Source: a virus (Duplodnaviria; Heunggongvirae; Uroviricota; Caudoviricetes). Taken from it: a stretch of 5,212 nucleotides of DNA. The notes beneath the pieces are model-generated. The model saw nothing but the letters and a program-made list of their open reading frames with translations, ran no database searches and was not told the origin of the DNA. The stretch lies in IMG/VR virus record IMGVR_UViG_2609460332_000003, one strand, 5' to 3'. A program made the translations under genes and the position numbers. Below are positions 1 to 5,212 of this stretch, piece after piece. Each line of letters begins with the position of its first letter. Position 1 is the stretch's first letter.

Positions 1-264
1 CTTATTTCGGGGAGATCTGTTTACAGTATCGGATCTTCGGTCCGTGGTGATGACGTTGCCATTAGTCCAGCGCTGAAGTGTCCGAATAGAAATACCGATA
101 CACCTACAAGCCTGACTTTTCCGGGCGCCGTTGATAACGGCCTCGTGGATAAGAGAAATAATTTTACGCCGCTCCAGGAGAGGGGTCAGTCTTCCTCGCT
201 GTTGTCCCAGAGGGCATTGAACTTTTCCCTTAATATAAGCAGGGCCGCTGCTTCCGCCAGAGCT
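1..264 (-). CDS. IS3-family transposase OrfB, N-terminal fragment (-1 frame relative to orfA; partial, runs off window start)
   Basis: The minus-strand frame -1 relative to orfA is open from the TAA at 267-265 to position 1 (88 codons with no stop) and overlaps the last ~26 codons of orfA. Its translation (...RRKIISLIHEAVINGARKSQACRCIGISIRTLQRWTNGNVITTDRRSD...) has the HTH-like motif seen at the start of IS3-family OrfB proteins. A candidate A-AAG slip site sits at minus-strand GGGAAAAG (plus coordinates 229-222). Confidence 0.5.
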
Positions 265-698
265 TTATCTTTGCGCTTAAGCTCTTTCTCCAGTTCTCGT
301 AACTTATTTTTTGCGTCACGCAATGCCCTGTCTGTTCGGATATTTTCCGTCAATTTCTTTTCATGCGCCTGAATTGAGATAGCCCGCCATTCTTTAACCT
401 GTTCAACAAACAATCCCATGCGTCGGCAATAATCAGCTAGTTCCATTTCTGACAGCGTAGCCGTCTCAAGAACAACTGAGAATCGACGCTCCGGTGTCCA
501 GTCTTCAACATCAACGGAGGTAATCTTTTCATTTTCAGGTAAAAGTCCTTGCTCCACTAACTCACATCTCCATTTTGATACAACTGAGGCACTGATCTTC
601 AGCTTACGGGCTATCTGACGATGTGACCAGCAGTATGGTGGTAAAAGCCATATCAGTCCTTTCTCTTTGAGTTCACTTGGTATTGGTTGTCCTGGCAT
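186..698 (-). CDS. IS3-family transposase OrfA (N-terminal HTH, C-terminal leucine-zipper-like coiled coil)
   Basis: ORF track gives 186..728 (180 aa) from a TTG. The in-frame ATG at 698-696 (MPGQPIPSELKEKG...) is preceded by a strong Shine-Dalgarno (minus strand AAGGAGATAACA-ATG), so I place the start at 698 (170 aa). The protein has HTH-like segments (IARKLKISASVVSKW; LSEMELADYCRRMGLFVEQVKEW) and a C-terminal heptad-repeat region (LRDAKNKLRELEKELKRKDKALAEAAALLILREKF), typical of IS3/IS150-group OrfA. The exact IS name is not recognised. Confidence 0.75.
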   Translation of the reverse strand: MPGQPIPSELKEKGLIWLLPPYCWSHRQIARKLKISASVVSKWRCELVEQGLLPENEKITSVDVEDWTPERRFSVVLETATLSEMELADYCRRMGLFVEQVKEWRAISIQAHEKKLTENIRTDRALRDAKNKLRELEKELKRKDKALAEAAALLILREKFNALWDNSEED

Positions 699-772
699 TG
701 TTATCTCCTTAAAAAATTGAGGCGACAACTATGCTGACACAGGGGGTTACTCACCGATCTCCTTCACGGTAA

Positions 773-1003
773 TACGCAACTTTCTCCGGGGATTATCTCC
801 GCGTAACTGACAACAAGGGGAAAACGCACGATGTGCTGACCGGAAGTGATGACGGTCGCCACAGCAACACGTCTCTGGCGTGGGGGGCTGGCGTGCAGTT
901 TAACCCGACCGAATCCGTGACCATTGACCTTGCTTATGAAGGTTCCGGTAGTGGCGACTGGCGAACGGATGCATTTATTGTTGGTATCGGATACCGTTTC
1001 TGA
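773..1003 (+). pseudogene. lom: 5'-truncated lom-like gene (Ail/Lom/OmpX-family outer membrane protein), C-terminal ~76 codons only
   Basis: The frame ending at TGA 1001-1003 translates to YATFSGDYLRVTDNKGKTHDVLTGSDDGRHSNTSLAWGAGVQFNPTESVTIDLAYEGSGSGDWRTDAFIVGIGYRF*. The ...AYEGSGSGDWRTD.FIVG.GY.F terminus is the characteristic last beta-strand region of lambda Lom/Ail-family proteins. There is no N-terminal signal peptide or first ~130 codons; the frame is closed by TAA at 770-772 right next to the IS. Gene order lom then stf then tfa matches lambda. Confidence 0.8.
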
Positions 1004-1107
1004 CAACAGACGCCGATTTATCTTCTGTAAATATTGTTATGATACGCAGGTTCATCCACCTTATGGGGTGAACTGCGTTTGAGGAAACGTAAAGTTACAC
1101 TGTCCTG

Positions 1108-1141
1108 AAGCCCGTGGCGTCACTGCTGCGGGCTTTTTTTA
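1108..1141 (+). terminator. Putative rho-independent terminator downstream of lom
   Basis: AAGCCCG (1108-1114) pairs with CGGGCTT (1129-1135) as a 7-bp GC-rich stem, with a 14-nt loop, followed by a T-run (1134-1141). It lies 13 nt upstream of the stf ATG. Confidence 0.5.
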
Positions 1142-1154
1142 TTGGTGGAAAAGT

Positions 1155-2792
1155 ATGACAGTAAAAATTTCTGGCGTGCTTAAAGATGGCACAGGAAAAC
1201 CAGTACAGAACTGCACCATTGTGCTGAAGGCCAGACGAACCAGCAGCACGGTGGTGGTGAACACGGTGGCCTCTGAAAATCCGGATGAAGCCGGACGTTA
1301 CAGCATGGATGTTGAGCATGGTCAGTACAGCGTCACCCTGCTGGTTGAAGGTTTTCCGCCTTCACATGCCGGGACCATTACCGTCTATGAAGGTTCCAGA
1401 CCAGGTACGCTGAATGATTTTCTCGGTGCCATGACGGAGGATGATGTACGACCGGAGGCACTGCGCCGCTTTGAGCAGATGGTAGAAGAGGTGTCACGTA
1501 ACGCCTCCGCGGTTGCACAGAATACGGCAGCCGCGAAAAAATCAGCCAGCGATGCCAGTGCATCAGCCAGCGAGGCGGCAACTCATGCAACCGATGCTGC
1601 AGCCTCATCACGTGCCGCCAGCACGTCAGCCGGACAGGCCGCGTCGTCGGCTCAGTCAGCGTCTTCCAGCGCAGGAACGGCATCGACAAAGGCCCGTGAA
1701 GCAGCAAAAAGTGCTGCTGCTGCAGAGTCATCAAAAAGCGCGGCAGCTACCAGCGCCAGTGCCGCGAAAACGTCAGAAACGAATGCCGCAGCATCACAAA
1801 AATCGGCAGCCACTTCTGCATCCACAGCGACCACGAAGGCGTCAGAAGCTGCCACCTCGGCACGGGGTGCGGCGGCCTCAAAAGAGGCAGCGAAATCTTC
1901 AGAAACGAATGCATCATCAAGTGCCAGTAGTGCAGCTTCCTCGGCAACGGCGGCAGGAAATTCCGCGAAGGCGGCAAAAACGTCCGAGACGAACGCTAAG
2001 TCTTCTGAAACAGCAGCGGGACAGAGCGCCTCAGCTGCGGCAGGTTCAAAAACAGCGGCTGCATTATCTGCCAGTGCCGCGTCAACAAGTGCCGGGCAGG
2101 CCTCAGCCAGTGCCACCGCCGCCGGAAAATCGGCAGAAAGCGCCGCATCATCCGCTTCAACAGCCACAACGAAGGCTGGCAAAGCCACTGAGCAAGCCAC
2201 TGCAGCAGCGAGGTCTGCTTCTGCAGCAAAAACCTCTGAAACAAATGCAAAGACTTCAGCAGACAATGCTGCTTCCTCTAAGGCGGCAGCCGCATCGTCA
2301 GCCAGTTCAGCGGCGTCATCGGCATCATCTGCGTCTGCTTCAAAAGATGAGGCGACCAGACAGGCGTCAGCAGCAAAGGGCAGCGCCACGACGGCATCCA
2401 CGAAGGCGACAGAGGCAGCTGGCAGTGCGACGGCGGCAGCTCAGAGCAAAAGTACGGCGGAATCCGCGGCAACGCGCGCCGAGACAGCGGCAAAACGGGC
2501 AGAGGATATTGCATCCGCCGTGGCGCTTGAGGATGCGAGCACGACGAAAAAGGGGATAGTACAGCTCAGCAGTGCGACCAACAGCACTTCCGAGTCACTG
2601 GCGGCAACGCCAAAAGCGGTTAAGGCGGTAATGGGTGAAACGAACAAGAAAGCGCCCTTAAATAGTCCTGCACTGACCGGAACGCCAACAACACCAACTG
2701 CGCGACAGGGAACGAATAATACCCAAATCGCAAGCACGGCTTATGTTATGGCTGCGATCGCTGCCTCGTGGACTCGTCGCCTGACGCACTGA
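1155..2792 (+). CDS. stf: Side tail fibre protein Stf, N-terminal portion (545 codons; reading frame terminated prematurely by an apparent 1-nt deletion)
   Basis: ATG at 1155 preceded by GGTGG (1144-1148). N-terminus MTVKISGVLKDGTGKPVQNCTIVLKA... followed by a long Ala/Ser/Thr-rich repeat region with recurring K(T/S)SETNA motifs, as in lambdoid prophage side tail fibres. The frame ends ...TAYVMAAIAASWTRRLTH*, whereas the conserved tail-fibre motif ...AAIAALVDSSPDALNTLNELAAALGNDP... continues in the next frame. Confidence 0.85.
   Translation: MTVKISGVLKDGTGKPVQNCTIVLKARRTSSTVVVNTVASENPDEAGRYSMDVEHGQYSVTLLVEGFPPSHAGTITVYEGSRPGTLNDFLGAMTEDDVRPEALRRFEQMVEEVSRNASAVAQNTAAAKKSASDASASASEAATHATDAAASSRAASTSAGQAASSAQSASSSAGTASTKAREAAKSAAAAESSKSAAATSASAAKTSETNAAASQKSAATSASTATTKASEAATSARGAAASKEAAKSSETNASSSASSAASSATAAGNSAKAAKTSETNAKSSETAAGQSASAAAGSKTAAALSASAASTSAGQASASATAAGKSAESAASSASTATTKAGKATEQATAAARSASAAKTSETNAKTSADNAASSKAAAASSASSAASSASSASASKDEATRQASAAKGSATTASTKATEAAGSATAAAQSKSTAESAATRAETAAKRAEDIASAVALEDASTTKKGIVQLSSATNSTSESLAATPKAVKAVMGETNKKAPLNSPALTGTPTTPTARQGTNNTQIASTAYVMAAIAASWTRRLTH
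1497..2520 (+). repeat. Imperfect in-frame tandem repeats encoding an Ala/Ser/Thr-rich low-complexity region of Stf
   Basis: Recurrent near-identical DNA words: AAAACGTCAGAAACGAATGC (1767-1786), AAATCTTCAGAAACGAATGC (1893-1912), AAAACGTCCGAGACGAACGC (1977-1996), AAAACCTCTGAAACAAATGC (2228-2247). The GCN/TCN codon periodicity leaves alternative frames open on both strands. Confidence 0.75.
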
Positions 2793-4060
2793 ATACGCTG
2801 AACGAGCTGGCTGCGGCGTTGGGCAACGACCCGAATTTTGCGACCACCATGACTAGCGCGCTTGCGGGTAAGCAACCGAAAGATGCCACCCTGACGGCGC
2901 TGGCCGGGCTTGCTACTGCGGCAGACAGGTTTCCGTATTTTACGGGGAATGATGTTGCCAGTCTGGCAACCCTGACAAAAGTTGGGCGGGATATTCTTGC
3001 GAAATCGACCGTTGCCGCCGTTATCGAATACCTCGGTTTACAGGAAACGGTAAACAAGGCTGGTAACGCCGTTCAGCGTTCCGGCGATAAAATGACCGGA
3101 GAACTGAAAATTGGCACGGTGAATGCGCTGCGAATTTTCAATGATGCCTTCGGTCTTATTTTCCGTCGTTCAGAAGATTTTCTTCATTTCATTCCGACGG
3201 CTGAAGGACAAGGCGAAAACGGTGATATCGGCCCATTAAGGCCATTCGCTATAAATCTGAGAACAGGTGCTATATCTGTCAGCCACGGGGCCAAAATTGA
3301 TGGTGGGCTGGCGCTTGGTACAGATAACGCACTGGGCGGTAATTCCATTACTCTCGGAGATAACGACACTGGTATTAAACAGGGCGGCGACGGTGTCCTT
3401 TTATTCTATTCAAATGGACAACTGGCATTTGGGCTTCAACCCGCATCTGCTGATTTTTATAAGCGGGTTGCATATATTCATCAGGGAATAATTCCTGATG
3501 GAAGTGGCGCATTTGCAGACCAGTTGAATAATGCCACCGCGCCTTTTGTTCAGACGCAGTTTGCCTGGAATCCCACTCCTGGTGGTCTTTACGTGCCGAT
3601 AGTTAAGGGCTTGTCCATTCGCAATGGACAGGGCTATCCCGGCGCGGTCAGCTTTGGGTATTTACTGACAGAACAGTATGGATTTCCGGTTCCATGTATT
3701 CATATGCGTGGCGATGGCGGTAATGATGCTTTATGGCAGTTTAACCCGAACGATAAATCCTTTATTTCACCGGGTGCTCTTATTGCGGGTGGCGTCCGTT
3801 ATAACACCGATGGAAATATATTTGGTGGGTGCTGGGGGTCAAACTTAAATGATTACCTGAATAGTTCTTTTATCAGAAATGTGCGTCTGGGAGGCAGACG
3901 TTCTGACACATTATATCGCGGAGGACTTTGCGAACCAGGTAATGGTCATGTGACAACAGGATTGCAAATTATTGGTGAGGTTGATGGAGATGACTGGATG
4001 GTGTCACGACCACTACAAAAATACATTTCTGGTAACTGGTATAACGTTGAACAGGCATAG
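2768..4060 (+). CDS. stf: Side tail fibre protein Stf, C-terminal portion: conserved collar region (2768-3046) plus variable receptor-binding domain (3047-4060); in a different frame from the N-terminal portion
   Basis: Translation from the ORF-track start (GTG 2768) reads (M)DSSPDALNTLNELAAALGNDPNFATTMTSALAGKQPKDATLTALAGL...FPYF...VGRDILAKSTVAAVIEYLGLQE..., the conserved collar shared by P2 H, Mu S, lambda Stf and T4 gp37-type fibres. It ends ...KYISGNWYNVEQA* (TAG 4058-4060). The true protein is most likely continuous with 1155-2792. Confidence 0.85.
   Translation: MDSSPDALNTLNELAAALGNDPNFATTMTSALAGKQPKDATLTALAGLATAADRFPYFTGNDVASLATLTKVGRDILAKSTVAAVIEYLGLQETVNKAGNAVQRSGDKMTGELKIGTVNALRIFNDAFGLIFRRSEDFLHFIPTAEGQGENGDIGPLRPFAINLRTGAISVSHGAKIDGGLALGTDNALGGNSITLGDNDTGIKQGGDGVLLFYSNGQLAFGLQPASADFYKRVAYIHQGIIPDGSGAFADQLNNATAPFVQTQFAWNPTPGGLYVPIVKGLSIRNGQGYPGAVSFGYLLTEQYGFPVPCIHMRGDGGNDALWQFNPNDKSFISPGALIAGGVRYNTDGNIFGGCWGSNLNDYLNSSFIRNVRLGGRRSDTLYRGGLCEPGNGHVTTGLQIIGEVDGDDWMVSRPLQKYISGNWYNVEQA
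3021..3046. other. Gin/Pin/Cin/Hin-family 26-bp DNA-inversion crossover site (gix/pix-like), left boundary of an invertible segment
   Basis: TTATCGAATACCTCGGTTTACAGGAA. From memory, Mu gixR is TTATCCAAAACCTCGGTTTACAGGAA, giving 24/26 identity. It has the 12-2-12 layout with a central TC, and lies in frame inside stf (encoding VIEYLGLQE) at the conserved/variable junction. Confidence 0.7.
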
Positions 4061-4075
4061 CCATCAGGAGAATAT

Positions 4076-4603
4076 ATGCAACATCTGAAAAATATTACCG
4101 CCGGAAACCCCAAAACCATTGAGCAGTATCAGCTTACGAAAAAAGCTGGCGTTATCTGGCTATATACAGAAGACGGTAAAAACTGGTATGACGAATTAAA
4201 AAACTTTCAGGATGATACTTTAAAAATAGCTTATGACCAGAAGGGGATTATTCGTTGTATTGAGAAAGACGTATCAACACTTAACCCTGACGGGTTAAGT
4301 GTTGTTGAGTTACCGAATATAACAGCCAACCGTCGCGCCGATATCTCGGGAAACTGGAAGTTTCTGGATGGTAAAGTAGTAAAGCGGGAATATACAAAAC
4401 AGGAACTGCAACAGCAGGCAGAGTTACAAAAAGCCGCTTTGCTTTCCGAAGCGGAGTCTGTGATTCAACCGCTGGAACGTGCTGTCAGACTGAATATGGC
4501 AACTGATGAGGAACGCACACGACTGGAATCATGGGAACGCTACAGCGTTATGGTCAGCCGTGTGGATACTGCAAAGCCTGAATGGCCACAGAAACCAGAA
4601 TAA
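4076..4603 (+). CDS. tfa: Tail fibre assembly protein (Tfa; Mu U / lambda Tfa family)
   Basis: ATG 4076 preceded by AGGAG (4066-4070) with 5-nt spacing, 15 nt after the stf stop. The 175-aa product [23 protein letters not shown]...ITANRRAD...[23 protein letters not shown] follows the stf-then-tfa arrangement and has the Tfa-family C-terminal pattern (W.RY...V...DT......P..PE). Confidence 0.9.
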
Positions 4604-4612
4604 CAACAAATT

Positions 4613-4630
4613 AAGGCCCGTACGGGCCTT
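4613..4630. terminator. Perfect 18-bp palindrome (AAGGCCCGTACGGGCCTT) between convergent tfa and tfa'; putative bidirectional rho-independent terminator
   Basis: 7-bp GC-rich stem with GTAC loop. It is followed by TTTTCTT on the plus strand and by TTAATTTGTTG on the minus strand, and lies in the 30-bp gap between the two convergent stop codons. Confidence 0.55.
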
Positions 4631-4633
4631 TTC

Positions 4634-5167
4634 TTATTCTGGTGGTTCCGGGAATGTTACAGGAAGAACCGAGGTATCAGTTGTCTCAACCTGTTGCACG
4701 TATCGCATCCAGTTCATCAGTTGCTGTCTGTCTGAATCAGTGATAATCCCCAAAGTAAGCTGTGTTTGCCAGAACTGCGTTTTTTCTCTGGCCTGCTGTA
4801 ATAATATTTTTTTCTGGTTTTCCGTCTGTAGGCGCAACTCTTCTTCGGTATATACACGTTTAATGACTGCGCCATCTTTAAACATCCATTTACCTGAGTC
4901 GTCAGCACGCCGGTTGGCGGTAATATCAGGAATCTCAACGACGCTATAACCTTCAGGGTTAAGTGTGGAGGCATCTTTGGTTATGGCAACAATAATATTA
5001 TTTTCATCGTAAACAATCTTTATGGTGTCTGGCTGAAAGTTTTTCACTTCCTCATACCAGTTTTTTCCGTCCTCAGAGTAAAGCCAGATAACTCCGTGTT
5101 TCTTTGTTAACTCATACTGTTCCAGTGTTTTAGCATTACCCGCTTTTATGTTCTTTAAGTGCATCAT
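4634..5167 (-). CDS. Alternate tail fibre assembly protein (Tfa'; Mu U'-like), inverted relative to tfa
   Basis: 177-aa [41 protein letters not shown]...ITANRRAD...[25 protein letters not shown]. By eye it is about 70% identical to Tfa over the first ~110 residues and diverged after that. Its start is 1 nt downstream of the stf' stop, suggesting translational coupling. Confidence 0.9.
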
Positions 5168-5168
5168 A

Positions 5169-5212
5169 TTAAACGCTCGCTACATTATACCAGGTGCCAT
5201 TTATATACTTTG
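5169..5212 (-). CDS. 3' end (last 13 codons plus stop) of an alternate side-tail-fibre variable domain (stf'), partial at window edge
   Basis: Minus strand 5210..5169 translates to [13 protein letters not shown], which parallels the Stf C-terminus KYISGNWYNVEQA*. The stop TAA (5171-5169) is immediately followed by the tfa' ATG (5167). Confidence 0.6.

Follow-up and report, generated by a model that had tools for sequence, protein, structure and literature searches.

The DNA invertases of the P1 C segment (Cin), the e14 P region (Pin), p15B (Min) and Salmonella (Hin) recombine 26-bp crossover sites with a 2-bp core, depend on Fis and on an enhancer located within the 5′ end of their own genes, and members of this family complement each other in trans. 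The recombinational enhancer carries two Fis sites about 47–48 bp apart and acts in cis. This background on sites, enhancer and trans-complementation is said to be set out by Sandmeier in 1994. In the G segment of phage Mu (Gin; S/U and S′/U′), and likewise in the Mu-like phage vB_YpM_3, the order of elements is a site in the fibre gene, tip, chaperone, inverted chaperone, inverted tip, site and invertase gene.

The stretch of DNA analysed here (5,212 nt, called the window below) is laid out alike, and its locus has been described already: it is that of prophage Phi4 of Escherichia coli ST131 strain EC958 (Forde et al. 2014, PLoS One 9:e104400, PMC4134206), for which an invertible segment of 3106 bp was given, together with one of 2773 bp, lying within 508-bp imperfect inverted repeats, in the P2-like prophage Phi1. 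The same study described the invertase gene of Phi4 as severely truncated and proposed that the invertase of Phi1 acts in trans (PMC4134206).

Over positions 746–5211 the window matches E. coli ST131 genomes with zero substitutions, and in EC958 this interval corresponds to 1482508–1486974. The parts to the right of the window were therefore read from these near-identical genomes, and the window's own genome presumably has the same right flank. Coordinates with the prefix L001 refer to the EC958 locus, and those with the prefix L002 to the record CP015087. Taken as a whole, positions 3034–5212 very probably represent the left part, about 70%, of a Mu G/P1 C/e14 P-type invertible segment of ∼3.1 kb in the side tail fibre gene, stf, of the lambdoid prophage Phi4. 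An invertible tail-fibre cassette had been proposed in the first-pass annotation from the letters of the window alone, and the cassette is there, with its elements where that annotation had put them. They are as follows:

1155–3034, plus strand: constant part of stf (N-terminal domain, then the Ala/Ser-rich shaft as far as the crossover point), with PF08400 over residues 1–134 (E 2e-70)
2763–2766, plus strand: loss of 1 nt from a C run (GCCC to GCC), which frameshifts stf; the first difference from EC958, at window position 2766
3021–3046, plus strand: left 26-bp crossover site of the gix/cix/pix type, TTATCGAATACC-TC-GGTTTACAGGAA, with the central TC at 3033–3034
3035–4060, plus strand: tip A, the variable C-terminal end of Stf (341 aa), expressed in the window's orientation, 99.7% identical to the S-gene tip of the Mu-like Yersinia phage vB_YpM_3
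4076–4603, plus strand: tfa, encoding the tail fibre assembly chaperone that goes with tip A and is homologous to Mu U (PF02413, E 9e-35)
4613–4630, no strand assigned: GC-rich palindromic hairpin AAGGCCCGTACGGGCCTT between the convergent chaperone genes, terminator-like on both strands
4634–5167, minus strand: tfa′, the alternative chaperone, silent in the window's orientation (PF02413, E 6e-32)
5169–5212, minus strand: 3′ end of stf′ (tip B, like the C-terminus of P2 gpH), identified by translation, the remainder lying beyond the window

The Mu gix site (TTATCCAAAACCTCGGTTTACAGGAA) matched the window once, at 3021–3046 on the plus strand with 2 mismatches of 26, and matched none of 200 shuffled sequences (0 expected by chance). 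The crossover site lies inside stf, as had been claimed, and it is the same site that was listed as Phi4_5prime at 1484784..1484809 (Table 3 of PMC4134206). Its partner, TTCTCGTAAACCGAGGTTTTAGATAA, which had been expected as an inverted copy just beyond the right end of the window, was found in inverted orientation at L001 13358–13383, 3055 nt from the left site and ∼0.9 kb past the window end. Together, the left and right sites in L001 form a 32-nt inverted repeat with 84% complementarity and share the central TC/GA dinucleotide, so that there are two inverted 26-bp sites, in each of which the same 2-bp core is flanked by two 12-bp half-sites, with the right one seen in the near-identical genomes.

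Within the segment, the frame of stf runs across the crossover site to a stop codon at 4058–4060, and tfa follows it directly in the list above, which is the order of variable domain and chaperone first proposed. The last ∼65 aa of tip A match Mu S in PDB 5YVQ_A, and the product of tfa matches Mu protein U (PDB 5YVQ_B), a close homologue, over its full length with an E-value of 2.8e-86; in PDB 5YVQ the structure of Mu U was solved together with the S tip. A Pfam search of the variable tip returned no domain at E below 0.01. The two chaperones are 57% identical, while similarity between tips A and B is only patchy, and the full tip B (L001 12425–13369) is ∼82% identical to the C-termini of P2 H. 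From this divergence and from the relatives of each tip, tips A and B would be expected to differ in receptor specificity, and hence possibly in host range. The palindrome between the two tfa genes, previously called a terminator, has a 7-bp stem with 5 GC pairs, and its T tail is good on the plus strand (TTCTTATTCT) and weaker on the minus strand. The inverted tfa′ and the last codons of an inverted stf′ complete the arrangement on the minus strand, again as the first-pass annotation had read them.

The closest relatives of the parts come from different phages. In vB_YpM_3, a Mu-like phage isolated on Yersinia pestis, the DNA of tip A, tfa and tfa′ is 97% identical to that of the window from the crossover site on. 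However, the fibre gene of Mu is the S gene of a myovirus, whereas the window has a lambda-type stf with a PF08400 N-terminus in a lambdoid prophage; tip B is like P2 H and not like Mu S′; and, unlike in the Mu G system, the cassette's own invertase gene is not intact in Phi4. The 1,516 bp that the P2-like prophage Phi1 of EC958 shares with Phi4 at 96.5% identity run from the 3′ half of tfa′ through tip B and the right site into the invertase gene, of which they cover the first ∼190 nt; Phi1 differs in having an intact invertase and another active tip. The P1, e14, p15B and Hin systems are likened to the Phi4 cassette by description, as Fis- and enhancer-dependent invertases of the same class; Hin flips a promoter, whereas the Phi4 segment is coding. 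The crossover site inside stf, the alternative in-frame tips and the two chaperone genes support assignment to the class of Gin/Cin/Pin-type invertible host-range cassettes, and the gix-type site, the layout and the occurrence of both orientations agree with the earlier view that this is a serine-invertase switch of a known rather than a new kind. The feature itself is ordinary.

Inversion of the segment in silico gave an uninterrupted fusion, in which …AAVIEYLGL of the constant part is joined to RELGTSGEK… of the alternative tip and the protein ends in NVASV before the stop codon; in L002 this orientation B fusion carries an annotation as a protein of 941 aa. The fibre gene thus keeps its constant 5′ part outside the segment, which itself holds two alternative 3′ parts, both in frame and each accompanied by a chaperone gene of its own, as seen from ORFs, domains and fusions. 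In inverted genomes tfa′ is found directly 3′ of the fused stf (L002 10249–10782), so that the alternate chaperone goes with the alternate tip, as had been predicted along with the fusion to the constant N-terminus.

Both orientations exist in nature. Among complete genomes with at least 80% coverage of the junction query, the inverted junction was present in 226 and the junction of the window's orientation in 243, and the inverted-junction matches listed had 100% coverage and 99.8% identity. Moreover, some of the listed isolates bear similar strain labels and neighbouring accessions yet have opposite orientations (4/1-1 and 4/4 versus 2/0 and 4/0; p4A versus p11A; THO-015 versus THO-003), and one assembly holds both, with orientation A in the chromosome CP015085 and orientation B in the 32.7-kb record CP015087. 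When L001 and L002 were compared, the flanks were collinear at no less than 99.9% identity and L001 10271–13389 was inverted at 99.8%. The breakpoints fall inside the 26-bp sites with the half-sites swapped, and L002 has at its left site the hybrid TTATCGAATACCTCGGTTTACGAGAA, whose half-sites were exchanged at the central TC. From an EC958 culture, PacBio reads also yielded a contig in the alternative orientation (PMC4134206). Given both orientations in complete genomes, and in one assembly with the half-sites exchanged at the central TC, we conclude that the segment really flips.

In the window, a frameshift 255 bp upstream of the crossover site divides stf into two ORFs (1155–2792 and 2768 onwards); the same DNA in EC958 is a single intact ORF of 968 aa (L001 8410–11316, orientation A). 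Over 746–5211 the window differs from EC958 by two 1-nt homopolymer contractions, at 2763–2766 and 5208–5211, the former being this frameshift, and by no substitutions. The deletion at 2763–2766 is absent from all top matches listed, in both orientations and at 99.8% identity, and there is no product of the frameshifted 545-aa ORF on record. Because the deletion is private, lies in a homopolymer and is accompanied by a second homopolymer contraction and by no substitutions, it is probably a sequencing error. If it were true, a full-length fibre would be made from neither orientation in this strain. Beside the cassette, the lom gene is disrupted by an IS element, which is of the IS3 family in the window and ISEc12 in EC958; the IS/lom junction at 1–1150 is covered by no complete E. 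coli genome.

A serine recombinase gene of ∼190 aa had also been expected just outside the window, and here the expectation failed: in the near-identical genomes EC958 and CP015087, the invertase gene beside the right site is a 60-codon stub. It keeps the catalytic-serine motif GYVRVST, after which a TGG codon has become TGA, and homology stops at L001 13628. An intact 199-aa invertase, the product of EC958_RS04620 and 93% identical to the stub over the latter's length, is encoded by Phi1 in the same genome, about 525 kb away.

The stub, the frameshifted stf of the window and the IS element in the adjoining lom would all suit a frozen relic, in which the invertase is lost, neither inversion nor fibre production takes place and the two orientations are old inherited states. 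This is quite improbable, since the orientations are about equally frequent among near-identical ST131 genomes, including the listed isolates with similar labels and neighbouring accessions, since both occur inside one assembly and in the reads of an EC958 culture (PMC4134206), and since the frameshift, private to the window, has the pattern of a sequencing error. A segment that does move might instead be turned by RecA-dependent homologous recombination between short inverted repeats, with no site-specific invertase, and the sites are indeed embedded in an imperfect inverted repeat of 32–36 bp (PMC4134206). Such a repeat, very short and imperfect (84%), would serve homologous recombination poorly; the sites fit the gix consensus and exchange takes place at the site centre; the ∼1:1 split of orientations and their coexistence in one culture imply that switching is frequent; and the same genome encodes an intact invertase whose own sites are nearly identical. 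On these grounds the RecA route is less probable still, to the point of being hardly credible.

As the cassette's own invertase gene is a stub, site-specific inversion must be catalysed in trans. The crossover sites of Phi1 are almost identical to those of Phi4, with 1–2 bases different (PMC4134206), and the intact invertase of Phi1 is most likely the source of the enzyme. Recombination between a Phi4 site and a Phi1 site would invert about 525 kb of chromosome and leave a hybrid junction in which the Phi1 active tip is joined to the constant part from Phi4; for this junction no match above 97.3% identity was found, and the matches up to that value are native P2-like junctions in unrelated strains.

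The retained ∼190 nt of the invertase gene are 92–96% identical to the gixR-gin 5′ region of Mu and include the region that matches the position of the hin enhancer. When the stub was scanned with the Fis consensus, the sole strict match in the expected region was centred at nt 78, and a looser candidate was centred near nt 29, which places it about 96 bp away from the crossover centre (−67); taken alone, a scan with this simple consensus is weak. The spacing of these candidate sites fits the geometry of the Hin enhancer (∼100 bp and 47 bp; PMC3798978), with the assignment made by positional homology and the proximal site fitting loosely. The stub thus appears to hold the stretch that corresponds to the Fis-bound enhancer, and this stretch may still work as one. 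We tentatively suggest, with somewhat less than even confidence, that the cassette is a functional orphan switch, which has lost its own invertase but kept the first ∼190 nt of the gene for a cis-acting Fis enhancer, such that an unrelated P2-like prophage in the same cell would, through its invertase, determine the host range of Phi4 particles, a form of cross-prophage control. What would be new in this reading is only the retention of the enhancer under selection, as supply in trans was already put forward by Forde et al. 2014.

In the mechanism we propose, a serine DNA invertase would cut both 26-bp sites at the central TC/GA and rotate the strands, whereupon the segment flips. With the segment placed as in the window, the constant Stf shaft carries tip A, and the chaperone encoded next is the Mu U-like Tfa; after inversion, the shaft is in frame with the P2 H-like tip B, followed by Tfa′. 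The hairpin between the convergent chaperone genes would terminate whichever transcript is made. The enzyme would come from elsewhere, most likely from Phi1, and the stub would supply the matching stretch of the Fis-bound enhancer, which must act in cis.

Segments of this type yield spurious alternative contigs, one of which was deposited as an "extrachromosomal" record, and fibre genes annotated as incomplete are another of their effects; beyond correct annotation, the importance of the present locus is small. For the phages themselves, invertible tail-fibre cassettes travel as modules among Mu-like, P2-like and lambdoid phages, and such a cassette can go on flipping after the loss of its own recombinase. 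In Phi4, the locus sets which receptor-binding tip the phage particles would carry.

We mapped the window by reading the sequence and its ORFs and by scanning the ORFs against Pfam, which gave the following features.

1-778, minus strand: end of an IS3-family element, with orfA at 186-728
776-1003, plus strand: lom 3' remnant (PF06316, E 2e-28)
1155 onwards, plus strand: stf, side tail fibre gene of lambda type (PF08400, E 2e-70); its long shaft is rich in Ala and Ser
4076-4603, plus strand: tfa, chaperone gene (PF02413)
4613-4630, both strands: 18-nt GC-rich palindrome
4634-5167, minus strand: tfa', second chaperone gene (PF02413)
5169-5212, minus strand: last codons of the other fibre gene, stf' (sequence reading)

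This map matches the layout proposed in the first-pass annotation, in which a site in stf is followed by a variable end, tfa, a palindromic terminator, inverted tfa' and the inverted tail of stf'; the hairpin at 4613-4630 has a terminator-like score, alike on the plus and minus strands. The repetitive stf shaft (window 1500-2560) also gives long spurious ORFs, some in other frames and some on the opposite strand; those at 1513-2559 (plus) and 1652-2401 (minus) are examples of such non-genes. Another GC-rich hairpin with a T7 run (gaagcccg...cgggcttttttt, window ~1097-1140) lies 3' of the lom remnant, directly before the stf start at 1155, and is probably the lom terminator.

The crossover site claimed inside stf at 3021-3046 was recovered there as the only Mu gix match in the window, with 2 mismatches, and none of 200 shuffles gave a match. 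This left site, TTATCGAATACC-TC-GGTTTACAGGAA, sits in frame within stf and is translated as ...AAVIEYLGLQETVNK.... Window 746-5211 shows no substitutions and one 1-nt gap against EC958 and many other E. coli ST131 genomes, and the region past the window end was described from the near-identical EC958 locus (L001).

L001 12425-13369, minus strand: remainder of stf'
L001 13358-13383, inverted relative to the left site: partner site TTCTCGTAAACC-GA-GGTTTTAGATAA

The right site predicted just outside the window is thus present in EC958, and the two sites form an inverted repeat of 32 nt, 84% complementary and 3055 nt apart in L001. From these positions, the invertible segment is ~3.1 kb, of which ~2.18 kb lies within the window. 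In-silico inversion at the central dinucleotide gave an uninterrupted fusion of ...AAVIEYLGL to RELGTSGEK...NVASV and a stop, in agreement with the proposed joining of the constant Stf N-terminus to the alternate tip.

Both orientations occur among complete E. coli genomes. A 601-nt inverted-junction query (300 nt of constant stf and 300 nt of reverse-complemented stf') was searched against all of them and was found in 226 genomes, with 100% coverage and 99.8% identity among the matches listed, and the window's own junction was found in 243. Orientation differs between listed isolates that have similar strain labels as well as neighbouring accessions (4/1-1 and 4/4 versus 2/0 and 4/0; p4A versus p11A; THO-015 versus THO-003). 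Moreover, one assembly holds both: its chromosome, CP015085, has the window orientation, and CP015087 (L002; 32.7 kb, labelled "extrachromosomal") represents this same locus of the chromosome, gpJ to trpCF, in which the segment is flipped. When L001 and L002 were aligned, the flanks were collinear at an identity of at least 99.9%, L001 10271-13389 was inverted (99.8%), and the breakpoints fell within the 26-bp sites. L002 carries the hybrid TTATCGAATACCTCGGTTTACGAGAA as its left site, which is what exchange at the central TC predicts. The annotation of L002 gives the fused gene as a complete protein of 941 aa, with the former tfa' next downstream. The L002 record (NZ_CP015087.1) has many frameshifted genes and is not a replicon; this alternative-orientation contig is an assembly by-product of a mixed-orientation culture.

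A serine recombinase gene of ~190 aa had been expected just right of the window, but in EC958 only a stub is found there. It begins 55 bp past the partner site and stops after 60 codons, codon 61 being changed from TGG to TGA, and its product (MLIGYVRVSTNDQ...GDALVV) includes the catalytic-serine motif. The stub shares 93% identity with residues 1-60 of the intact 199-aa invertase of Phi1, a P2-like prophage of the same genome, and the DNA that begins with the right site and runs to gene nt ~190 is 92-96% identical to Mu gixR-gin; likeness to invertase genes stops at L001 13628. Since this cassette of the lambdoid prophage Phi4 keeps only an invertase stub, the enzyme must act on it in trans. 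Invertases of this kind also require an enhancer in cis that is bound by Fis. The hin enhancer has a pair of Fis sites separated by 47 bp, at about 100 bp from hixL (PMC3798978), and that of gin is located inside the invertase gene (Kahmann 1985, cited in PMC3798978). Counted from the start of the stub gene, the crossover centre is at position -67, and a Fis-consensus scan gave a strict match with its centre at nt 78 as well as a looser candidate centred near nt 29, a spacing that fits hin geometry. These positions would correspond to the hin sites. By homology, the retained stub would supply the enhancer.

The L001 sequence downstream of the stub holds tfa remnants and a methyltransferase gene, and the prophage ends near ompW/trpA. 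Two tfa 3' remnants (L001 13667-13813 and 14716-14863, 88.5% mutual identity) lie either side of the methyltransferase, which is class I SAM-dependent and stands between the stub and the prophage end; the stretch looks like a rearranged cargo region.

Against near-identical genomes, the window shows zero substitutions and two homopolymer contractions over 4.4 kb. One C of a CCC run (2763-2766) is missing relative to every ST131 genome listed, dividing stf into ORFs 1155-2792 and 2768-4060, and at 5208-5211 the final base of the window implies TTT in place of TTTT, a contraction that would frameshift the stf' end. Both are probably sequencing or assembly errors; if real, this strain would make no full-length fibre in either orientation. 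In EC958 the stf ORF (L001 8410-11316) is intact at 968 aa. RefSeq annotates this gene as incomplete, with the C-terminus missing, an end at 9906 and 9907-11316 unannotated, an artefact of the kind that mosaic fibre genes typically cause in annotation.

In the window, lom is broken by the IS3-family element (1-778; IS end ...AATACGCA at 778; L006, a further locus, 2230-2278), and this IS/lom junction is absent from complete E. coli genomes. EC958 has ISEc12 at the same spot instead, and keeps the last 33 bp of the IS3-type end (window 746-778; L001 8001-8033) adjoining the ISEc12 right end, which suggests successive IS events at lom.

Forde et al. 2014 described the same locus as EC958 prophage Phi4, with crossover sites at 1484784..1484809 and c1487865..1487890, an invertible segment of 3106 bp, the alternative orientation as a separate PacBio contig and a "severely truncated" invertase gene; because the crossover sites are nearly identical, the Phi1 invertase was proposed to act in trans on Phi4 (PMC4134206). 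The published sites map to window 3021-3046 and L001 13358-13383, and our analysis independently reproduces all of these points. It adds the split of 226 versus 243 genomes, the precisely reciprocal structure of the inversion, the mosaic origin of the cassette and the finding that the stub keeps the enhancer-equivalent region. The feature is of a textbook type, at a locus already in the literature, and the first-pass annotation rightly called it a known class; its observation is confirmed, and its interpretation is supported with the qualification that the cassette's own invertase is only a stub, so that the switch works in trans.

By its matches, the cassette is a mosaic. In L001 10270-12479, the left site, tip A (the Stf end active in the window orientation), tfa and the greater part of tfa' match the G-type segment of the Mu-like Yersinia phage vB_YpM_3 at 97% identity; this phage has the full S-U-U'-S'-invertase layout. 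L001 12113-13628 covers the 3' half of tfa', tip B (the alternative end), the right site and the stub, and this 1.5 kb matches Phi1 (L003, the Phi1 locus in EC958, 3578-5093) at 96.5% identity. Upstream of the left site, Phi4 and Phi1 have another ~500 bp in common, with 92.5% identity. A Phi4/Phi1 hybrid junction, the expected sign of invertase-mediated inter-prophage recombination, was searched for and not found. Over its full length, Tfa is homologous to Mu U (E 2.8e-86), whose structure was determined jointly with that of the S tip (PDB 5YVQ); the final ~65 residues of tip A match the Mu S C-terminus in the same structure. Tip B shares about 82% identity with the C-termini of P2 gpH. Likeness between the tips is limited to short patches and the chaperones are 57% identical, a divergence that would be expected of alternative receptor-binding ends. 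Thus, the two orientations may confer different host ranges.
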